Source: a virus. From it: 64,000 nucleotides of DNA. Position numbers and translations under genes: made by a program. Positions 6,326 to 57,735 of the stretch are shown here, piece after piece. The notes beneath the pieces are model-generated. The model was given only the letters and a program-made list of their open reading frames with translations. It ran no database searches and was not told the DNA's origin. Each line of letters starts with the position of its first letter. Within the stretch, counting starts at the first letter, position 1. The DNA lies in IMG/VR virus record IMGVR_UViG_3300043313_002018, positions 6,730 through 70,729 of that record, one strand, 5' to 3'.

Positions 6326-7041
6326 TACAACCCACCCCCGCCCGGCGGCACATCCGCCGGCTGCCCGGTGGTCGGCGCATCCGGCACCAGGCTCCACGCA
6401 TACCCTTCCTTCTGGAAGGACGTGTACCAGCGGCTCATCTTGAGCAGCGCGTTGCGCTCGACGGCCGCCTTCACAAACTGCTCCAGGTACGGCTTGGTGC
6501 GATCGAGGAAACTCGCCCCCGCCTTCAGTGCGCACACGTGCAGCGCATACCCGGTGAGCGTGTCGATCTCCTCCGACCCGATGTTCACGAAGTCGCTGTC
6601 GTCGGTCAGCACCGGGGTACTCCGTACCCCGTCGACTTCGAGGCTGCCGACCACGGGGCTCGCCGGGTAGATCGCCAGCAGATTCAATCCTACCGGGGCC
6701 CAGAACAGGGGGCGCGACGGGTGCCCATCCGCCCCCGCGCGCGCCTGCCACCAGTCCGGCGTCAGCATCTGGATCTCCGCCACGCTGACCCCGGTCATGT
6801 TCTTCCCCTGCCACGTCACCGCGGTCTGCTGGGCGAGCGTCCCCGGCACCGGCACCAGCGGGTCGTTCGGCACGTTCCCCACGACGATGCGCCGGCGCCA
6901 GTAGCTCGTGAGCAGGTTCCACGTCCGGAGGGCCTGATTGAGCGCCAGGTTCGCGTCAATCTCGGTCCAGAACGGGCTCGACTCATAGCGCTGCTGCAGG
7001 AGCTGGCGCAGCTGCGCGCGCGTGGTAGTGGTGTAGGGCAT
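6325..7041 (-). CDS. Head-tail adaptor-like protein (paralogue 2)
   Basis: RAQLRQLL...W...ANLALNQALR...LAIYPAS...YALHVCALK adaptor pattern. Confidence 0.6.
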   Translation of the reverse strand: MPYTTTTRAQLRQLLQQRYESSPFWTEIDANLALNQALRTWNLLTSYWRRRIVVGNVPNDPLVPVPGTLAQQTAVTWQGKNMTGVSVAEIQMLTPDWWQARAGADGHPSRPLFWAPVGLNLLAIYPASPVVGSLEVDGVRSTPVLTDDSDFVNIGSEEIDTLTGYALHVCALKAGASFLDRTKPYLEQFVKAAVERNALLKMSRWYTSFQKEGYAWSLVPDAPTTGQPADVPPGGGGL

Positions 7042-48367: not shown

Positions 48368-49239
48368 AGGAACCTCGATTGGTCGTGGTGACGGCCACCG
48401 CCGACGCTAAGCGCTTCGGCGAATTCGCCCACGAGCTCGACTTCCACGCGGACGGCTCGGTGCCGATCGTGGCCGTGGCACAGAAGTTCGCCCGGTGGTT
48501 GCCACTCCGCAACGGCGTCATAGAGGGGCACAACGACTACCTGGGCGTGGTCCCGGCGTTCGCGCGGGGTTGCGAGATCGCCCTGCGTACGTACCCGCGT
48601 GCCGAGGTGATCGCCTGTCTGCACGATGATCTGCTAGTCAGCGAGCCCGACTGGGACCAGAAGCTCCTCGCCCACTTTGACACCCATCCCGACTGCGGCC
48701 TGGCCGGCTTCGGGGGCGCCTGGGGACTCGGGGACGAGCAGGCCGGGCAAGGCATCTATCGTCCGACCTGGCTGGTGCGTCGCGGGTTTATGTCGAACAT
48801 GCAGGACGCCGAGGCGCACGGCACACGCGTCACCGAACCGCGGAAGATCGCCTGCCTCGACGGGTTCTCGCAGGTGTTCCGGCGCACGTTCCTCCAAGGT
48901 CGTCACCACAACGGCGTCGGCCCGAACATTGCGTTCGACGGCACCCTCTTTAGCATCTTGCAGGACTGGGGCGTGATGCACCACGCCTACGACGCCGCCA
49001 CCGGCGCCTTCGCACGGTACCTGAGCTGGGACACCTGGCTCCTCCCCTTCGCCGTGCACCACAAGGGCGGGCAGACGGCCGTCGGGGACGCGCAGTACAA
49101 CGAGTGGGCGCGCACCCACGCGCAGAAGCTCCCCGACTCGACCTCCGTCGGCGATCAGGTGTTTTGGGAGCAGGCCCACAAGATCATCTGGCAGCGTCTC
49201 GGGCATTTGTTGCCCTTCGAGGTCGACCGCCTTGGGTAA
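48364..49239 (+). CDS. Glycosyltransferase, GT-A (GT2-like)
   Basis: IACLHDD....PDW......F...P..GLAG..G, ACLDG, HHAYD. Confidence 0.75.
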   Translation: MKEPRLVVVTATADAKRFGEFAHELDFHADGSVPIVAVAQKFARWLPLRNGVIEGHNDYLGVVPAFARGCEIALRTYPRAEVIACLHDDLLVSEPDWDQKLLAHFDTHPDCGLAGFGGAWGLGDEQAGQGIYRPTWLVRRGFMSNMQDAEAHGTRVTEPRKIACLDGFSQVFRRTFLQGRHHNGVGPNIAFDGTLFSILQDWGVMHHAYDAATGAFARYLSWDTWLLPFAVHHKGGQTAVGDAQYNEWARTHAQKLPDSTSVGDQVFWEQAHKIIWQRLGHLLPFEVDRLG

Positions 49240-49430
49240 ATCCATCGCGGAGCTCGACGCACTCCTCGGGGCGTCCCTCGACTCGACCGGGCCCGGTGCC
49301 AAGGACCGGCCCGAAGCCCGTACCTCAGTCGTCGCGGAGAAACTCCGTACCAGGCTTGCGAAGCGCGGTGCCCTGCCTCCCGACCCGGGCGCCACCGCCA
49401 ACACCGTGCAGGTCGGCGGAGTGACACGCT

Positions 49431-49883
49431 ATGGAGACGCGGGTGGTCCGGTGGTCGTGGTTAGGCGCGCTCGCTCGGAAGTACGGGAAGCCGCCGGCGC
49501 GGCCGGAAGTACCAGCGACCCCTTCGGGTGGAAGGTCCAACCCGGCAACGCCCTCGAGCCACCTCCCGGGCGACAACCCGCTGGGCTGGAGCGGGTACAC
49601 GGCCCGGGAACTGTTCCGCGTCGGCCGGCGCTTCCGCATTCTGCTCCCGCGGGAGGGGGAGTCACGCCGGCGGGCCCAGCTGACCGACACGTACACGATG
49701 GTCCAGCACGACCGGACGCAGGGGTACTTCCGGGGGGACCTGGACCCGGCGGGGGAGGACCTGCGGCGGTTTCCGTGGGCGACGTTCGAGCAGACGCTGG
49801 CGGAGGAGCGGGTACGGTGGCAGAACAGCCTACCCCGGGGGAGCACACCCTCCCACTTACGTTCCAGCACCTCGACGAGGTAG
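49431..49883 (+). CDS. Hypothetical protein nested in an alternative frame upstream of the helicase core
   Basis: GGAG RBS; globular-looking central part. Confidence 0.45.
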   Translation: METRVVRWSWLGALARKYGKPPARPEVPATPSGGRSNPATPSSHLPGDNPLGWSGYTARELFRVGRRFRILLPREGESRRRAQLTDTYTMVQHDRTQGYFRGDLDPAGEDLRRFPWATFEQTLAEERVRWQNSLPRGSTPSHLRSSTSTR

Positions 49884-51157
49884 AGGACAGCACGCCGGCG
49901 CCGCTCGCCGAGGGGGAGGCGCCCAACTGGCCCGGCCCGTTTCAGTTCGTCACCGGGCCCGCCGGCTGCGGGAAGACGTACCTCGCCCGCCAGTGGGGCC
50001 TGCACGACAAAGGCTTCCTGCTCTGCGCGACCACTGGCATCGCCGCGGTGAACCTGGGCGACGCGGTAACGGTACACAGCACGCTCAAGTTCTTCGACAC
50101 CGCCTCCCTCGAGGAGAACTTCGTCTCGGGCCACTTGCAGGCCCGCATGCGCAAGCTGCGCGCTAGCGGTATCACCCGCTACGGCATCGACGAGGTAAGC
50201 ATGATGCCGGCCCGGGTGCTCACCACCCTCACCCACGCGATCGAGGAGCTGAACTCCGACGCCGCCGTGGACATGGGGCACGAGCCGCAGATCGGCATCA
50301 CCCTGATCGGCGACTTCCTGCAGCTCCCGCCGGTCAAGGAGGAGTACGCCTTTCAATCCCCCGAGTGGCCGAAGTACGAAGCGCACATGCTCAAGCTCAG
50401 TACCACCTACCGCCAGACGGACCCCGATTTCATCCGGGCCCTGCGCGCGGTACGCCTGGGGCAGCCGGAGGAAGCGATGGACGTCCTCGGCCCGCACATT
50501 CAGCCGTCGCTGGACATGCGCTTCGACGGCACCACCATCCTCAGCAAGAACCTGCAGGTGGATCGCTTCAACAAGCTGCGCCACCAGGAGCTCGCCGGCG
50601 ACGTGCTCACCTACAAGAACACCATTACCGGCAAGCCGCTCCCCGAGTGGGAGAAGAATATCCCGATGTTCGTGGGACTGAAGCGCGGCGCCAAGGTGAT
50701 GATCCTGGCGAATAAGTACCTGGATATGGGCGGCGGCGAGCGGCTGCTGCTCTACGCGAACGGCGACACCGGCACCTTTGTGGACGGGGACCCGCGTACC
50801 AAGGTGGCCCACGTGCAGCTGAATCGCAGCGGGGAAGTCGTCCCGGTTACCTACAACATCCGGCAGAACCTGCTGCCGACCGGCGCCAAGGGGAAGAAGA
50901 AGGACCGGTATCAGGTGCTAGGTGAGGTCGAGTACATGCCGCTGCGGCTGGCGTACGCCTCGAGCGTACACAAATCCCAGGGCCTGACCCTCGATCAGGT
51001 GCAGGTCGATATTAGCGATCCGTTCTTTGCGGCGCCGGCGATGGTGTACGTGGCACTAAGCCGGGGGCGCTCGTTAGAGGGGCTGAGACTGGTGGGGAAC
51101 CCGGCGCTGCTGCTGAAGCGGTGCACGGTGGACCCATTGGTGGAGAGGTGGCGATGA
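49817..51157 (+). CDS. Pif1/RecD-like SF1B helicase
   Basis: FVTGPAGCGKT, DEVSMM, GDFLQLPPV, PLRLAYASSVHKSQGLTLD, YVALSR; likely GTG start 49817 after GGAGGAG (frame open back to 49232). Confidence 0.9.
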   Translation: MAEQPTPGEHTLPLTFQHLDEVEDSTPAPLAEGEAPNWPGPFQFVTGPAGCGKTYLARQWGLHDKGFLLCATTGIAAVNLGDAVTVHSTLKFFDTASLEENFVSGHLQARMRKLRASGITRYGIDEVSMMPARVLTTLTHAIEELNSDAAVDMGHEPQIGITLIGDFLQLPPVKEEYAFQSPEWPKYEAHMLKLSTTYRQTDPDFIRALRAVRLGQPEEAMDVLGPHIQPSLDMRFDGTTILSKNLQVDRFNKLRHQELAGDVLTYKNTITGKPLPEWEKNIPMFVGLKRGAKVMILANKYLDMGGGERLLLYANGDTGTFVDGDPRTKVAHVQLNRSGEVVPVTYNIRQNLLPTGAKGKKKDRYQVLGEVEYMPLRLAYASSVHKSQGLTLDQVQVDISDPFFAAPAMVYVALSRGRSLEGLRLVGNPALLLKRCTVDPLVERWR

Positions 51158-51999
51158 GTTTGCGATTGTGTCATCCGGGAAAGTTCGGGGATCTGCTCTG
51201 GGCCCTGCCCACCGCGCGCGCGCTGGCCGAACAGGCCGGCAAGGATGAGGAGTACGGCGGGGTAGAACTGCACCTGCCCAGCGCACTGCGCTCGATCAAA
51301 CCCCTGCTCGAGAAGCAGGGCGATTACCTTGCCAGCGTCGTACTGCATGACGACTGGCAGGTACAGGACACCGCGCCAGCCACACCGTTGCAGCCGCCCG
51401 GGTACACGATGCCCTCGCTCGGCTACAAGCAGTGGCCCGTACGCGAACTCCCCTACGAGGTCGCCTGGGAGCACGGCATGTACGAGAGTGGCCTGAGCGA
51501 CGCCCACTTCTTCCGCCCCTGGATTCACGTTCTCCCCTTGGACTATAACCTGGCCAGCGACCGGCAGCGCCTGGTCGTGCACTGGACCGATCGGTGGTTT
51601 GAGCTCAAACTGGGCATTCTGCGCGAGCTCCAGCGCGTCCTCGCCCGGGATGTGTACTGCCAGTGGATCGCGGCACCGGGATCGCGCATGGCCGAGGCCG
51701 GCGCGGTGCAGGTGGACTGGGTGGCCCTGGCGCGTACCCTGGCCGGCGCCGATGCCGTGCTGACCGACTGCAGCAGCGCGCACGTGCTGGCGGCCGCGGT
51801 GGGGGTGAAGACCATCCTGGTGGTCGAACCGGAAACGGATCGCCACCACTTCATCTTCTGGCCGGGGAGCACGGACACCTGGCAGCCGCGAGACACCGTG
51901 CTGGGGCGGGCGATCCGGCCGGTGCTGGGGAACGACGGGAAGCCCACCTTTGACTCGCGCCATACCATTGAGGAGGTCACCCGTGCCCTACGCCGCTGA
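51154..51999 (+). CDS. Glycosyltransferase, GT9 (heptosyltransferase)-like
   Basis: GKFGDLLWALPTARAL and ADAVLTDCSSAHVLAAAVG..T. Confidence 0.7.
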   Translation: MSLRLCHPGKFGDLLWALPTARALAEQAGKDEEYGGVELHLPSALRSIKPLLEKQGDYLASVVLHDDWQVQDTAPATPLQPPGYTMPSLGYKQWPVRELPYEVAWEHGMYESGLSDAHFFRPWIHVLPLDYNLASDRQRLVVHWTDRWFELKLGILRELQRVLARDVYCQWIAAPGSRMAEAGAVQVDWVALARTLAGADAVLTDCSSAHVLAAAVGVKTILVVEPETDRHHFIFWPGSTDTWQPRDTVLGRAIRPVLGNDGKPTFDSRHTIEEVTRALRR

Positions 52000-52429
52000 C
52001 ACCGAGGTCCCCGTCGATCGCTCCAAGCAGCAGATCGAGGCCATGCTCAAGCAGCGCGGCTGCGAGGGGTTTGCCTCTGCCTGGAGCTCGCAGGGCGACA
52101 CCATCGAGTTCATGTGGAAGGGCATGCGCATTCGCTTTGTGGTGCCACCGCTCGACCAGGAGAAGTACAAGCACGACGCCCAGGGCCGGGAACGCCGGGC
52201 GGAGGTGCTCGCCAAGCAGCTCGCCCAAGCGAACCGCGCACGCTGGCGCGGACTCTACCTAGTGGTGAAGGCCAAGCTCGAGGCGGTGGAGTCGGGCATC
52301 TCGATCTTCGAGGAGGAATTTCTGGCGTTCATCGTCGACCCTACCTCGAACAGCACGGTGGGGCAGGTACTGGTGCCGCGGCTGTTGAATGGTGGGAAGC
52401 TGCTGCTGACCGCTGGGAAGGAGACGTAG
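51983..52429 (+). CDS. Conserved phage hypothetical protein
   Basis: YA..T.V.V.RSK..IE..L...RARWR.L.LVVKAKLEAVESGI..FEEEFLA family. Confidence 0.75.
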   Translation: MPYAADTEVPVDRSKQQIEAMLKQRGCEGFASAWSSQGDTIEFMWKGMRIRFVVPPLDQEKYKHDAQGRERRAEVLAKQLAQANRARWRGLYLVVKAKLEAVESGISIFEEEFLAFIVDPTSNSTVGQVLVPRLLNGGKLLLTAGKET

Positions 52430-52431
52430 CG

Positions 52432-52908
52432 ATGGCTGATGACAAGTCTGCTCTCGAGGGCACGCGATCCCTCACAGACATACAAGAGGACTTGCGATGG
52501 ATTCGCTCGTTCATTGAGTATGCTCGCTACGAATTACAGCCGGGAGCACAGATGACTGGCGATCAGTTGCAATGCGAGGCTGACAAGGCCATCGCCAAGA
52601 TCGACGCCATCCTTGCGCTCTCCCGGCTCCCCGCAGACCAAGAGGAGGAGCGCGGTTGGCTGATCGAGAAATACCGTGATCGTAATGGTGACCCAATTCA
52701 ACCTGAATGGTGGGACGGTTCCAGTTTCAGAACAAATGCCGATCACGCGATGCGATTCAGCCGAGAAATAGACGGCAAACTCATGCTGTCGTTACTGCTC
52801 GGTAATACATTCGCGTTCGACTGCCGCGTCACGGAGCATCTATGGGAGCCAGCCCCGTCCCTCTCGTCACGGCTCCCCGTAGAGGAGCAGAAGGAATCCC
52901 GTGGGTAG
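52432..52908 (+). CDS. Hypothetical protein in a lower-GC patch
   Basis: GWLIE......WW.G..F.T.A..A.RF.R..D motif; AT-ending codons. Confidence 0.6.
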   Translation: MADDKSALEGTRSLTDIQEDLRWIRSFIEYARYELQPGAQMTGDQLQCEADKAIAKIDAILALSRLPADQEEERGWLIEKYRDRNGDPIQPEWWDGSSFRTNADHAMRFSREIDGKLMLSLLLGNTFAFDCRVTEHLWEPAPSLSSRLPVEEQKESRG

Positions 52909-53278
52909 ACTGTTAAATCCCGGCCTCGGCGAGCTCGCCGACCGCTACACCATCCTGCAGCTGAAGATCCTGCACGGCGACCCGACGAACGTCCAGCACT
53001 TCCACGCCGAGCAGGCGCAGGTGCTGATGACGATGGAGCGGCACGCCAGTCTGAACAGCGACCAGGTACGCAGCCTAATCGTCTACCTGCGCACGGTCAA
53101 CGGCGAACTGTGGACGCTCGAGGACCAGATGGCGGTGTACGCCAAGGCCCTGCTGGTCGACCCGCCGGTGGTCGCCGCGCTGGGCATGACGATCTGGAAG
53201 TTAAACCAGGAGCGCAACCAGCTCATTCAGCGGATCAACGTCGCCGCCGGCACGGATGCCGGCCCCGAGAAATTCTAG
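52901..53278 (+). CDS. DUF6165-like protein
   Basis: GELADR.TIL.LK...L..VN..LW.LED...LN..R..L...IN...G...EK. Confidence 0.65.
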   Translation: MGRLLNPGLGELADRYTILQLKILHGDPTNVQHFHAEQAQVLMTMERHASLNSDQVRSLIVYLRTVNGELWTLEDQMAVYAKALLVDPPVVAALGMTIWKLNQERNQLIQRINVAAGTDAGPEKF

Positions 53279-53308
53279 TTGACACGTGGTACGCACGTAC
53301 CATACATT
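53279..53308 (+). promoter_or_regulatory. Promoter TTGACA-N18-TACATT with the palindrome TGGTACG-CA-CGTACCA in the spacer
   Basis: Read directly; palindrome at 53287-53302. Confidence 0.7.
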
Positions 53309-53335
53309 CACCCCTTCCGAAAGGCTGAGGACCCC

Positions 53336-53605
53336 ATGAGCAAGGCACTTCCGACCCGCAAGGATGTATTCAGCAAGGACGGCCGGCGCTACGCCGGGTA
53401 CGCGCCCGCGACCGCCGGCGACGCGAACCTCCCGACGGGGGTACGCGGCACCTACAAGGGCCCGATCTACCGGCTGGAACGGCAGGTGCGCACCCGGCGC
53501 GGCTTCGGTACCCTGGTGCATGTGATCGTCTCGTTCACGCGCACCAAGGCCAAGGCCCACCAGATGGCGGCCGGCTGGGTGAAGATCGCCACGAAGGACC
53601 GGTAG
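53336..53605 (+). CDS. Small basic hypothetical protein
   Basis: ATG 53336 after AAGGCTGAG. Confidence 0.6.
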   Translation: MSKALPTRKDVFSKDGRRYAGYAPATAGDANLPTGVRGTYKGPIYRLERQVRTRRGFGTLVHVIVSFTRTKAKAHQMAAGWVKIATKDR

Positions 53606-53878
53606 GCCATGCTGGTGGCCCTGGTATCCAGCGTGCTCGAGTGCGGCGTCGCCGAGCACAGCGACATGCTCAAAACGGCGGTACGCACGGCCGACTCGTC
53701 GATCGAGTTTGTGACCGACGGCGCTTGGCTCGATCCGCAGCAGTTCTCGGGTACCTTCCCCGATGGCCGGGGATTTGACGCGGTACGGGGCGGACTTACC
53801 CATACACGCTTCGACGCCGCACTCGAGCACGCTGGATACCAGGGCCACCAGCATGGCCTACCGGTCCTTCGTGGCGAT
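53585..53878. repeat. Perfect 67-bp inverted repeat (53585-53651 / 53812-53878) with a 160-bp loop
   Basis: Base-by-base reverse complement; produces identical N-termini MLVALVSSVLECGV on both strands. Confidence 0.95.
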
Positions 53879-54706
53879 TTGGTGCACCTCAACTACCACC
53901 GCGGGCTGCATTCCCGCTGGACGCCGGAGGTGATCGCCAGCTACGGGCCCACCCCCTTCGTCATCACCTTCCACGACACGTTCGAGACGCAGCCGGACGA
54001 TCTAGCCTTCCGTCTCCTCGACACCTTCAACGTGCGCGGCATGGTGGTACACGAGCCCTGCGACCTCGTGAGCCATCCCAAGGTCCACTACTGGCGCCAG
54101 CCTTGCCCGCCGCCCCTCGGCCGCGGCTGGCCGGCGGATATCCCCAAAGTGTTCACTGCCCATGGCTGGCGCCCGACCCTCGGCACGCTCGGCTGGGACT
54201 TCCCGTGGAAGAACTACGACCTGCTGGCGGACGTCACCGCCGAGCGGGGCTGGAACCTGCGGATTGTCGGCAAGGTCGACGGGGACCGGCGGAAAGCGCT
54301 GGCCGCTCGCAACCCGAACATCTGGTTTGACGGCTACGTGGAGACGCCGGATGCGATCGCCAAGCTCAGTGCGTGCGACGCGACGGCGTTCCTGTACACC
54401 TGCGCCAATTCCGGCACGAGCGGGGCGATTCGCCAGGGCATTACGGCGGGCAAGCCACTGATCGCGGCAACCGGCTGCCGACAGTTCCGGGACTTGGAGG
54501 GTACCGCAGAGGGGTGGCCGATTCGGTGGATTGCGCCGAATGCCGATGCGCTCGCCATGACGCTGGACACCGGCGAGTACGGGTACAGCTTTGCCCTGAT
54601 CGGCCTCGCCCAGGACCTCAGCTGGGAGAAGGTTGGGCCGCAGTACGCCAAGCTGTATCGAGACGCGGTAGCGGATGCCGCGAGAAACGCCCGGCGCCTG
54701 CCATGA
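53609..54706 (+). CDS. Glycosyltransferase, GT-B-like, carrying the inverted-repeat insertion
   Basis: CGVAEH..ML, VHLNYH, VITFHD, GTLGWDFPWKNYD, SGAIRQGI.AGKPLI. Confidence 0.75.
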   Translation: MLVALVSSVLECGVAEHSDMLKTAVRTADSSIEFVTDGAWLDPQQFSGTFPDGRGFDAVRGGLTHTRFDAALEHAGYQGHQHGLPVLRGDLVHLNYHRGLHSRWTPEVIASYGPTPFVITFHDTFETQPDDLAFRLLDTFNVRGMVVHEPCDLVSHPKVHYWRQPCPPPLGRGWPADIPKVFTAHGWRPTLGTLGWDFPWKNYDLLADVTAERGWNLRIVGKVDGDRRKALAARNPNIWFDGYVETPDAIAKLSACDATAFLYTCANSGTSGAIRQGITAGKPLIAATGCRQFRDLEGTAEGWPIRWIAPNADALAMTLDTGEYGYSFALIGLAQDLSWEKVGPQYAKLYRDAVADAARNARRLP

Positions 54707-55611
54707 AGGTCCTCCTGATCGGCAACCTCTCCGACCGCCGCTGCGGCTTCCAGAACTTCACCGCGCAGATGCAGCACGCGCTGCACGCCCGTGGGGACGT
54801 GGAGCTGACCATGTACGACGGCACCTACTCAGCGGTGTACGCACGCCAGCAGCTCCCCGGCCGGCATTACGACGGCTTCTTCCCAGCGAACCTGGACGAG
54901 TTCAACGTCGTGCACCTCGTCTGGAACGCCATGACGATGAACCATTATGCCGGCGCTCCGTGGTCCCTGCTCGAGGGGATCGTGCTCCGCAGCTGGTGGG
55001 ACGGCGGCCCGAGCGACGCCTCCTGCCCCTTCGAGCCCCACATGGACGTCAAGTGGAGCGACTACCCGCGGGAGGGCTACGAGTACATGGCCTACCCAGT
55101 CCCCGACTGGGTGGACGACCTGCCGGCCACCGCTCCCACCTTTACCGTGGGTTGCAGCTCTGTGCGCGGCGATGGCGTTGCCAGCGTGCGGGAGGTGTGC
55201 CAGAAGCACGGCTGGGCCCTCAACCTGCCCGAGCCCGGCCAGTGGCTGTCGATCGAGGACGAAATCCGCCGCCTCGCGCGCAGCTCGGTCAATGTCTGCT
55301 GGTACAACACCCCGCCGCTCTGGCACAACCGGGCCAGCGCGCCCAGCATGCTGATCGCGGCCCTGCGCCCGCTGCTCATCAACGACGACCCGCTGGTGGC
55401 GCACCTGCAGGGGTACACCGGCGAGCAGGGTATCTACAAGGGCAGTAAGCACGGTTGGGACTACGGCCCGAATCTTGAGGAGTGCCTGATCGCGCTGGAC
55501 ATGCTGCACCGCACCGGCGGACTCTCGACGCCGCAGCGACCGCTTTCCGACCTGAGCTGGACCCGTGCCGCCCGGCAGTTCGTGCAGACGTGGGAGGCCG
55601 CCCGTGCGTAG
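54703..55611 (+). CDS. Glycosyltransferase, GT-B-like (divergent)
   Basis: MKVLLIG...CGF.NF...NVVHL.W...SAP...IAA.RPL......SW...A..F; paralogous layout to the upstream GT. Confidence 0.6.
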   Translation: MKVLLIGNLSDRRCGFQNFTAQMQHALHARGDVELTMYDGTYSAVYARQQLPGRHYDGFFPANLDEFNVVHLVWNAMTMNHYAGAPWSLLEGIVLRSWWDGGPSDASCPFEPHMDVKWSDYPREGYEYMAYPVPDWVDDLPATAPTFTVGCSSVRGDGVASVREVCQKHGWALNLPEPGQWLSIEDEIRRLARSSVNVCWYNTPPLWHNRASAPSMLIAALRPLLINDDPLVAHLQGYTGEQGIYKGSKHGWDYGPNLEECLIALDMLHRTGGLSTPQRPLSDLSWTRAARQFVQTWEAARA

Positions 55612-56524
55612 GGTCGCCGTTACCGGGACCACCGGGTTCCTCGGGAACGCGGTGGTGCGCGCGCTCGAAGAGGGCGGGTACACGGTCCTCGTGCTGGGCG
55701 GGGTCAACCTGCTGAACGAGCACGCGACCGAGGCGGCGATTGAACGCCTGCCGGCGCACACCCCCGTCATCCACCTCGCCTACCCCGGTGGCGACGGTAT
55801 CGGCGACGCGCTCAAGCACCCGGCCACGATCGCGCTCAACCTGATGCGCATGGACCTGAACGTCATTCAGGCGTGCGCGCGGCAGCACATCTCGAAGCTG
55901 GTCTGCATCGGCTCGGTCTGCGCGTACCCGGAACGCACCAACGTCCCGACCTGCGAGGAGATGCTCTGGAGCGGCTACCCCGAGCCGGTGAACGCCAGCT
56001 ACGGCATCGTCAAGCGCACCCAGCTCGCGCTACTGCAAGCATGCCGGGACGAGTTCAACCTGAACGGCATCCACCTGATCCTGCCGAACCTCTACGGCCC
56101 CGGCGACCGCACCAAGCACGTCATCCCTGCGCTGATCGGGCGCATGCGCAAGGCCGCCCGCGACGGCGACGGCGTGGTGACCATCTGGGGCCACGGGGAC
56201 GTCAGCCGCAGCTTCCTCTACATCGACGACGCCGCGGCCGGCATTGTCCGCGCGCTCGAGCACTACAATCGTCCGGCGCCACTTAACCTGGTGAACGCCG
56301 GCGAAACCACCATGTACGAGCTCGCCCGCATCCTGCAGGTCTACACCGACTACTACGGCGGCCTGGAGTGGGACACCACCCAACCCGTCGGCCACCGGCA
56401 GCGCAACTTTTCTCAGGTCAACATGGTGCACGCGCTCGACTGGCGTCCGCGGGTCGGGCTGGCCGACGGCCTGCAGCAAACGGTCCACTGGCACCAAACC
56501 GAATACCCCACGGAGTCCCTCTAA
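55604..56524 (+). CDS. fcl: GDP-L-fucose synthase-like NAD(P)-dependent epimerase/reductase
   Basis: VTG.TGFLG, GSVCAYP, EE.LW.GYPEP.N..YG..KR, NLYGPGD, HVIPALI, IWG.G..SR.FLY.DD. Confidence 0.8.
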   Translation: MRRVAVTGTTGFLGNAVVRALEEGGYTVLVLGGVNLLNEHATEAAIERLPAHTPVIHLAYPGGDGIGDALKHPATIALNLMRMDLNVIQACARQHISKLVCIGSVCAYPERTNVPTCEEMLWSGYPEPVNASYGIVKRTQLALLQACRDEFNLNGIHLILPNLYGPGDRTKHVIPALIGRMRKAARDGDGVVTIWGHGDVSRSFLYIDDAAAGIVRALEHYNRPAPLNLVNAGETTMYELARILQVYTDYYGGLEWDTTQPVGHRQRNFSQVNMVHALDWRPRVGLADGLQQTVHWHQTEYPTESL

Positions 56525-57735
56525 TGCCGTTGCTGAGTACCGAACTGTCCGCCTGCCGCGTCTGCGGCGACACCAGCGCCATCGAGCCAGTCCTCGAACT
56601 GGGTCCGCAGAAACTCAGCGGGTTCCCGGCCAACGCCGAGGAAGCCGCCGCGGTACACACCGTGCCGCTCGATCTGCTCCACTGCAGCAACTGCGGCACG
56701 GTGCAGCTCTCCCACACCGTCAACCCGGCGCTGTTGTTCCGCGACCAGTACTGGTACGCCTCCGGCATCAACGGCATGATGCGCGAGGAGCTGCGCAACG
56801 TGGTGCGCGAGGCCCGCGGCTGGGTCAAGGTCCGCGACGGCGACTGGGTGCTGGACATTGGCGCCAACGACGGCACCCTGTTGAATGCCTGGCGCGAGCA
56901 CGCCTGGGAGGGCCGGCCGATGCGGGTAGCGGTGGAACCCTCGCCGACGTTCCGCACGGCCCTCCACGACGTCAGCGACCTCTACATCCCGGACGTCTTC
57001 CCGACGCCACTGGACATGCAGTTCAAGGTCATCACCTCGATCGCCATGTTCTACGCCGTGCCGACGCCAGTGGAGTTCGCGCAGGCCATCCGCGAGCGCC
57101 TGACTCCCGACGGCGTGTGGATCGTCCAGATGCAGGACCTGCACAACATGGTGCAGGCGACGGCGTTCGACAACATCTGCCACGAGCACCTCGCCTACTA
57201 CAGCGTGAGCAGCTTCCACGAGGTGTGCACGCGGGCCGGGCTGAAGATTGTGAGCGTCCAACCCCGCGAGATCAACGGCGGCAGCCTCCGCTTTATCGTG
57301 CAGCGGCTCGAGGAGGGGGAATCGGCCGCGCGCCCGCCGATCCGCGAGTCCCGGATTGACTGGCCGCTCTTTGAGGAGACGCTGGTGCAGCGCTGCGCGT
57401 CCCTCGCCACCATGGTCGACGCCGCGCAGTCTCACGGCCACCAGGTCGACCTGCTCGGCGCCAGCACCAAGGGCAACACGCTCCTGCAGATCGCCGGCCT
57501 CGGCCCGCACAACATCCGCCAGGCCTGGGAGCGCCACCCGGATAAGATCGGCCGGCACACGATCACCGGCATCCCGATCGTCGGCGAGGAGCAGGGTCGC
57601 CTCTCCCCGCCCGACCTGCTGGTCTGCCCGATCTGGCAGTTCCGACGCGGGATCATCGAGCGCGAGCACGACTACCTGACGGCCGGCGGGCGGATTTACT
57701 TCCCGCTGCCGGACGGGGAGATGTTTTGCGGTTAA
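56524..57735 (+). CDS. NDP-hexose C-methyltransferase (Zn-binding, SAM and C-terminal domains)
   Basis: CRVCG, LDIGANDGTLL, FDNICHEHLAYYS, INGGSLR, GASTKGNTLLQ, K.G....TGIPI. Confidence 0.85.
   Translation: MPLLSTELSACRVCGDTSAIEPVLELGPQKLSGFPANAEEAAAVHTVPLDLLHCSNCGTVQLSHTVNPALLFRDQYWYASGINGMMREELRNVVREARGWVKVRDGDWVLDIGANDGTLLNAWREHAWEGRPMRVAVEPSPTFRTALHDVSDLYIPDVFPTPLDMQFKVITSIAMFYAVPTPVEFAQAIRERLTPDGVWIVQMQDLHNMVQATAFDNICHEHLAYYSVSSFHEVCTRAGLKIVSVQPREINGGSLRFIVQRLEEGESAARPPIRESRIDWPLFEETLVQRCASLATMVDAAQSHGHQVDLLGASTKGNTLLQIAGLGPHNIRQAWERHPDKIGRHTITGIPIVGEEQGRLSPPDLLVCPIWQFRRGIIEREHDYLTAGGRIYFPLPDGEMFCG

Follow-up and report, generated by a model that had tools for sequence, protein, structure and literature searches.

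The DNA analyzed here, referred to as the window, is a stretch of 64,000 nucleotides that corresponds to positions 6730–70729 of a 71.8-kb IMG/VR virus record (IMGVR_UViG_3300043313_002018) which has direct terminal repeats and is rated complete. It derives from a soil metagenome and has a GC content of 66%. The region 49232–57735 encodes a PIF1-like helicase, further ORFs, a DUF4254 protein, a small ORF and a glycosyltransferase (GT) of the GT-B type, followed on the 3' side by a 302-aa ORF, a NAD-dependent epimerase/reductase and a C-methyltransferase (Methyltransf_13/14). This block is a sugar-modification module located amid replication genes, and the same gene order occurs in other soil phage contigs (L005, L006, and L007), of which one has a length of 72 kb. 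Searches of the phage collection by blastn or tblastn returned no relatives, scans of viral contigs with the GT protein and two DNA words gave no match, and neither did a scan of metagenomes with a word from the region between the repeat arms described below. The sole locus retrieved in a metagenome scan with a word from a repeat arm (L008) was discarded, its alignment being a chance 20-mer match to unrelated DNA.

The GT (365 aa) has 431 homologues in metagenomes, some of which carry PF13692. The protein itself has no match in Pfam or PHROGs, its neighbors have none in PHROGs either, and a sequence profile search of the PDB with the GT family was also negative. An AlphaFold2 model built on 114 sequences reached a pLDDT of 91.3 and a pTM of 0.88, and its top Foldseek matches are MshA, PimA, HepE, and glycogen synthase (E of 6e-13 to 1e-10). 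Model and structural matches agree on a GT-B fold of two Rossmann-like domains. The small ORF located upstream (89 aa) may be translationally coupled to the GT.

The inverted repeat and its contents

The GT gene hosts two arms of 67 nt each (53585–53651 and 53812–53878) that are complementary at 67 of 67 positions and separated by a loop of 160 nt. A perfect 67-mer match is far beyond chance, and this is the only inverted repeat in the whole 64-kb window with arms of at least 22 nt, a distance of up to 3 kb and a complementarity above 83%. The repeat is genuine, as the initial annotation had described it. The features of the locus are as follows.

53201–53854, minus strand: antisense ORF of 217 aa; it starts with the duplicated Shine-Dalgarno sequence, ATG and 14 codons and lies antisense to conserved genes
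53336–53605, plus strand: upstream ORF of 89 aa (gene calls, conserved synteny); its 3' end lies inside the left arm
53585–53651, plus strand: left arm, the native donor; conserved in the syntenic contigs L005, L006, and L007, with N-terminal residues that fit the family consensus
53609–54706, plus strand: GT-B (GT4-like) glycosyltransferase ORF, 365 aa, with both arms inside it (homologues, AlphaFold2, Foldseek)
53652–53811, plus strand: loop of 160 nt encoding GT residues 15–67; the empty-site contig of run X13 has the identical sequence over 53717–53815
53812–53815, plus strand: microhomology CGAC (4 nt), native; retained in the X13 contig and reverse complement of GTCG at 53648–53651
53816–53878, plus strand: insertion proper, 63 nt in frame; reverse complement of 53585–53647 and skipped in X13

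The left arm comprises the last seven codons and the TAG stop (53603–53605) of the upstream ORF, an AAGGA Shine-Dalgarno (SD) sequence (53594–53598), the GT start codon (ATG at 53609) and codons 1–14 of the GT, while the right arm lies in frame within the same 365-aa ORF; both points had been read correctly in the initial annotation. The loop between the arms codes for the conserved AEHS and WLDP motifs and for a lineage-specific extension of a surface loop. It is open on both strands, a property that had been noted previously and that holds, yet carries no evidential weight, as open antisense frames are common at 66% GC: between 19 and 50% of random 54-codon antisense windows of this region are open. 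The right arm places a second ribosome-binding site (RBS), ATG and 14 codons on the minus strand, where they open the 217-aa antisense ORF across the upstream gene. This ORF is a by-product of the duplication and shows no sign of being an expressed gene.

Origin of the right arm

Comparison with relatives indicates which of the two arms is older. The DNA of the left arm is conserved in the three syntenic contigs and its codons fit the N-terminal consensus of the family. The right arm is represented in none of the homologues aligned (0 of 19 in one set and 0 of 113 in another), and the spacing between the WLDP-like and HLNYH motifs, which amounts to 53 residues in this protein, ranges from 14 to 32 residues in the 64 homologues that have both motifs. 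The left arm is native and the right arm is an insertion. No inverted repeat occurs at the homologous place in L005, L006, or L007 and the repeat is absent from every relative examined, so that it is neither a conserved programmed switch nor an inherited regulatory device.

An allele lacking the insertion was found by placing contigs of other public runs on the region. Run X13, a soil sample of 2025 from another study, contains one contig of 151 nt (depth 2.7) that spans the site. It matches positions 53717–53815 with no differences over 99 nt and continues with positions 53879–53930 with three differences over 52 nt, thus skipping exactly 53816–53878 (junction 53815|53879). The insert is therefore 63 nt long and amounts to 21 codons in frame, which add the residues AALEHAGYQGHQHGLPVLRGD to the GT. 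There is a single possible 63-nt excision that yields the X13 junction, and the junction reads RFD|LVHLNYH, consistent with the family consensus. The insertion is polymorphic among strains and the empty-site allele exists. In six further runs (X2–X7) the phage flanks are present and no contig covers 53605–53985, so these runs are uninformative on the allele. The divergence of the X13 contig is uneven on the two sides of the junction (3/52 on the right, 0/99 on the left) and could reflect recombination between strains near this place.

The exact event differs from the 99-nt excision (53786–53884) that had been suggested from the sequence. That excision does preserve the reading frame, but the natural empty site is a different one: positions 53786–53811 (26 nt) are native and stand beside the empty site in X13, so that the 99-nt boundaries were rejected. 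These 26 nt have no other copy in the window, as is explained by their being a native, lineage-specific part of the loop. As to the check proposed on homologous GTs, the insert is lacking in all those aligned. At the outward switch point the arm runs 4 nt beyond the insert, owing to a 4-nt microhomology (CGAC/GTCG), whereas the return point shows only an imperfect one (three of four bases, CGAT vs. CGAC). All three frames of the insert are open, and the frame would have been retained by chance in one case out of three.

The arrangement is probably the result of a recent in-frame template-switch insertion of 63 nt in the GT-B gene of one soil phage strain. In such an event the growing strand would have stopped after position 53815 (ending in TTCGAC) during replication of the GT gene, and its last four bases would have paired with GTCG at 53648–53651, about 165 nt behind on the same-sense strand. 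A stretch of 63 nt would then have been copied backwards, comprising codons 13 to 1, the start codon, the RBS and the upstream stop, before the strand returned to the original template at the very next base. The outcome would be a 63-nt in-frame insertion in reverse complement which, together with its donor, makes up a perfect inverted repeat of 67 bp. An exact reverse-complement copy, microhomology and return to the adjacent base constitute the signature of template switching, and the absence of mismatches between the arms points to a recent event. The locus presents a nearby reverse-complement copy, an ancestral state that differs by one event and microhomology at the outward switch. That template switching can generate perfect hairpins in one step has been documented (PMC8794818). 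On the other side stand the imperfect microhomology of the return switch and the fact that the empty site is represented by one X13 contig with a depth of 2.7. Moreover, a copied tract of 63 nt whose donor lies about 165 nt away exceeds what is usual for short-range template switches. The insert allele is in frame and dominant in at least one sample, which would also be expected under selection for the insert. None of the three origins put forward in the initial annotation (a phase-variable switch, an mRNA hairpin, and an amplification or assembly chimera) coincides with this single 63-nt insertion.

An origin of the repeat in vitro, either as a fold-back chimera of amplification or library preparation or as an assembler error, is highly improbable. 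Amplification chimeras typically appear as inverted duplications with microhomology, coverage is low (the junction evidence rests on contigs with depths of 3–8), the contig that holds the loop has a reduced depth, and the samples bearing the insert all appear to be siblings from one soil series. An artefact, however, would need two precise switches with return to the adjacent base, and would have produced the sole repeat of this kind in 64 kb, in frame and in a loop of variable length. It would also have to recur in separate assemblies. An ENA contig (ERZ27257268, k141) encodes the same 365-aa product and shows 2 differences to the window over 7098 positions; its name indicates MEGAHIT words longer than the 67-nt arm, with which the repeat would be resolved. 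The two differences are SNPs, at 50638 (G/A) and 52261 (A/G), that separate the IMG/VR record from the MEGAHIT contig of ENA; they show either that neither assembly was copied from the other or that the phage population is polymorphic. A contig with both arms is also present in a second sample (ERZ27257224). These two non-identical full-length assemblies and the sibling contig make the chimera suggested previously unlikely. Altogether, three sibling assemblies hold the same strain, and the flanks in ERZ27257224 and ERZ27257274 have no mismatch. Apart from the source assembly, exact look-ups of neighboring proteins retrieved only the source run's Logan contig and short contigs of sibling samples, and no contig among these extends through the right arm into the downstream flank.

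The probable source run (X1) is consistent with these assemblies. Its independent k=31 contigs comprise 53000–53614, the 67-nt arm alone, 53622–53841, and 53849 onward; these breaks are the ones that a real inverted repeat predicts and both new junctions are covered, while the empty-site junction was found in none of the k=31 contigs of this run. Contigs at k=31 are blind to the orientation of the loop. The insert is carried by several assemblies and samples, as seen in contigs, and its origin in vivo is favored. With respect to depth, the X1 loop contig (53622–53841) reaches 3.2, compared with 6.3 and 8.4 for the flanks, and the arm contig reaches 9.2, which is not about twice the depth of the flanks. 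As a guess, the lower depth of the loop would be due to the under-representation of hairpin-forming fragments in sequencing.

Predicted effects on protein and mRNA, and orientation of the loop

At the protein level, the AlphaFold2 model places the insert and the adjacent native loop (residues ~47–90) in an excursion of low confidence (pLDDT 48–58) between confident elements. This excursion directly precedes a conserved strand (residues 91–96, LVHLNY), and the insert supplies a replacement Asp before it. According to the model, the GT fold probably tolerates the 21 extra residues.

At the RNA level, the predicted minimum free energy of a 391-nt region is -257 kcal/mol, compared with -165 for shuffled sequences (z = -14.6), and the stem alone accounts for -160 kcal/mol. 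The mean unpaired probability of the segment that contains the SD sequence and the AUG (53592–53614) is 0.00 with the insert vs. 0.32 in the empty-site allele. A 67-bp duplex that hides the RBS and the AUG, and that is a predicted substrate of double-strand-specific RNases, would probably lower GT output. Transcription reaches the left arm about 230 nt before the right arm, and the stop of the upstream ORF lies within the left arm, so that coupled ribosomes could still initiate. In the absence of conservation or covariation of the hairpin, the predicted burial of the start site is likely a side effect of the insertion rather than an evolved function.

Two further readings give the repeat a role. 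In one of them, corresponding to the mRNA hairpin of the initial annotation, the insert would have been kept as a self-silencing element whose duplex lowers GT synthesis through blocked initiation and/or RNase III cleavage, and the strain would benefit, for instance from an altered glycan. The predicted burial of RBS and start codon is complete, as that annotation had anticipated, with an extreme stability of the stem and full pairing of SD and AUG in the ensemble; furthermore, the allele predominates in the source sample and is present in sibling samples. RBS-occluding long-range mRNA structures and RNase III sites are familiar from phage transcripts (e.g., T7 and lambda), but these are conserved, usually imperfect and much shorter. 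The hairpin described here stems from a single strain-specific event, relatives lack the right arm, and neither conservation nor covariation accompanies it. A clonal bloom can account for its predominance in a few related soil samples, the order of transcription leaves room for coupled initiation, and a simple loss-of-function mutation would be an easier route to silencing. No RNA run contains the sequence. Selection for silencing is accordingly very unlikely.

In the other reading, the repeat would work as an ON/OFF toggle driven by recombination, with the loop flipping in vivo at appreciable frequency by means of the host RecA, an unrecognized phage recombinase or template switching, and with two glycosylation states as the outcome (intact enzyme vs. 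residues 15–67 scrambled). It draws mainly on one contig of ENA assembly ERZ27257224 (k141_648261, locus L010; 566 nt, equivalent to 53313–53878), which follows the window over 53313–53651 without mismatch and continues with an exact reverse complement of the loop together with the other arm. It fits the model with an inverted loop with 0 mismatches, and its end coincides with the outer boundary of the arm. In a de Bruijn unitig, the connection between the left flank and an inverted loop should require words of more than 67 nt that contain the junction, which favors the existence of real reads bearing it. The frame is open in both orientations, and 67 bp of perfect homology suffices for RecA-type recombination. 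Intragenic recoding inversions are among the cases described for bacteria (bioRxiv 10.1101/2023.03.11.532203).

Nevertheless, a working toggle is unlikely. The loop is inverted in this single contig of 566 nt, whose end coincides with the arm boundary, and forward in both full-length contigs, which show no break at the repeat. ERZ27257224 is a low-coverage assembly with contigs of ~600 nt, and an end at the arm boundary is what a hairpin walk in the assembly graph would give; the contig may represent a true inversion isomer or an assembly quirk. The inverted form loses conserved motifs, and an open antisense frame is expected by chance. A search with the 90-aa product of L010 gave no other protein with the inverted N-terminus among 5.8 billion sequences. 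Searches of the complete 71.8-kb genome for serine and tyrosine recombinases (PF00239 and PF00589) were negative while the controls were positive, in agreement with the earlier remark that no site-specific recombinase was seen, and RecA was not found in the complete phage genome either. An enzyme of the host may nevertheless act on the repeat. The Sak4-like ATPase that had been proposed as a possible agent did not hold up: the only AAA_24 signal is sub-threshold (12.5 bits, 49946–50104) and lies inside the PIF1 helicase ORF. The phase-switch proposal of the initial annotation thus retains one sibling contig with an inverted loop in its favor, against the lack of a recombinase and the absence of the repeat from all relatives, two facts which argue that this is not a programmed inverton of a known kind.

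With the repeat regarded as the product of a template switch, L010 still makes inversion by general recombination possible, and counts against that reading as a hint that the repeat may already undergo inversion. The repeat would render the loop invertible by general homologous recombination or by further template switching, either of which would scramble residues 15–67. As these residues are conserved, the inverted form would be a null allele and not an alternative enzyme. That one template switch has just created an invertase-independent intragenic toggle, with the loop present in both orientations in soil phages, is a tentative idea that is more doubtful than probable.

Relation to known systems and significance

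The event shares most of its traits with quasipalindrome and template-switch mutations (Ripley-type, four-point model; Monttinen and Löytynoja, 2022, PMC8794818), namely the copying of nearby sequence in reverse complement in one event, microhomology at the switch point, return to the original template, and an instantly perfect stem. It differs from the usual cases in that the copy has landed within a coding loop with the reading frame kept, the stem takes in the translation start of the gene itself, and the derived and empty-site alleles have both been caught in environmental phage populations. Most described template-switch events are also shorter, and closer to their donor, than 63 nt from ~165 nt.

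Invertons (Hin/Gin/Fim-type and intragenic recoding ones) have in common with this locus a segment flanked by inverted repeats inside a gene, with a frame that is open both ways; one contig shows the flipped orientation here and the host gene concerns glycosylation, surface-modification genes being a frequent class near invertons (PMC11892184). Unlike invertons, however, this genome lacks an invertase and the repeat is not conserved in relatives. The arms are perfect over 67 nt, compared with one 11-nt repeat given in the account of recoding inversions (bioRxiv 10.1101/2023.03.11.532203), and the flip scrambles the core of a conserved catalytic domain instead of providing an alternative functional variant, in contrast to recoding invertons.

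The resemblance to RBS-occluding structures and RNase III sites lies in a stable stem over SD and AUG in a polycistronic phage transcript, whereas in this case the duplex is perfect over 67 bp, belongs to one strain and takes one of its arms from the coding sequence of the same gene. Fold-back chimeras show the same geometry, an inverted duplication with a few bases of microhomology. They produce one random junction per molecule, which coexists with a dominant true junction, as opposed to the two exact junctions found here across several assemblies and a source run where the empty-site junction was not found.

This type of mutation is already known and the locus is a further natural example of modest interest; evidence of an evolved function for fold tolerance, RBS occlusion or invertibility was not seen in this analysis. 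It is a clean natural case of a long perfect hairpin that arises in one mutational step inside a coding gene, with the ancestral empty-site allele caught in another metagenome, and illustrates a proposed origin of stems and possibly of invertible segments. Two cautions follow from it. A striking perfect inverted repeat that covers the start of a gene may be a mutation that is days old rather than a regulatory device, and the loop of such a repeat can appear in either orientation in short metagenomic contigs. Should the toggle be true, the locus would offer a snapshot of an invertible switch or regulatory hairpin born in one step while the pre-insertion allele still circulates. If the inverted isomer is real, the locus would lend itself well to studying how recombination-driven phase variation emerges in a phage glycosylation pathway.
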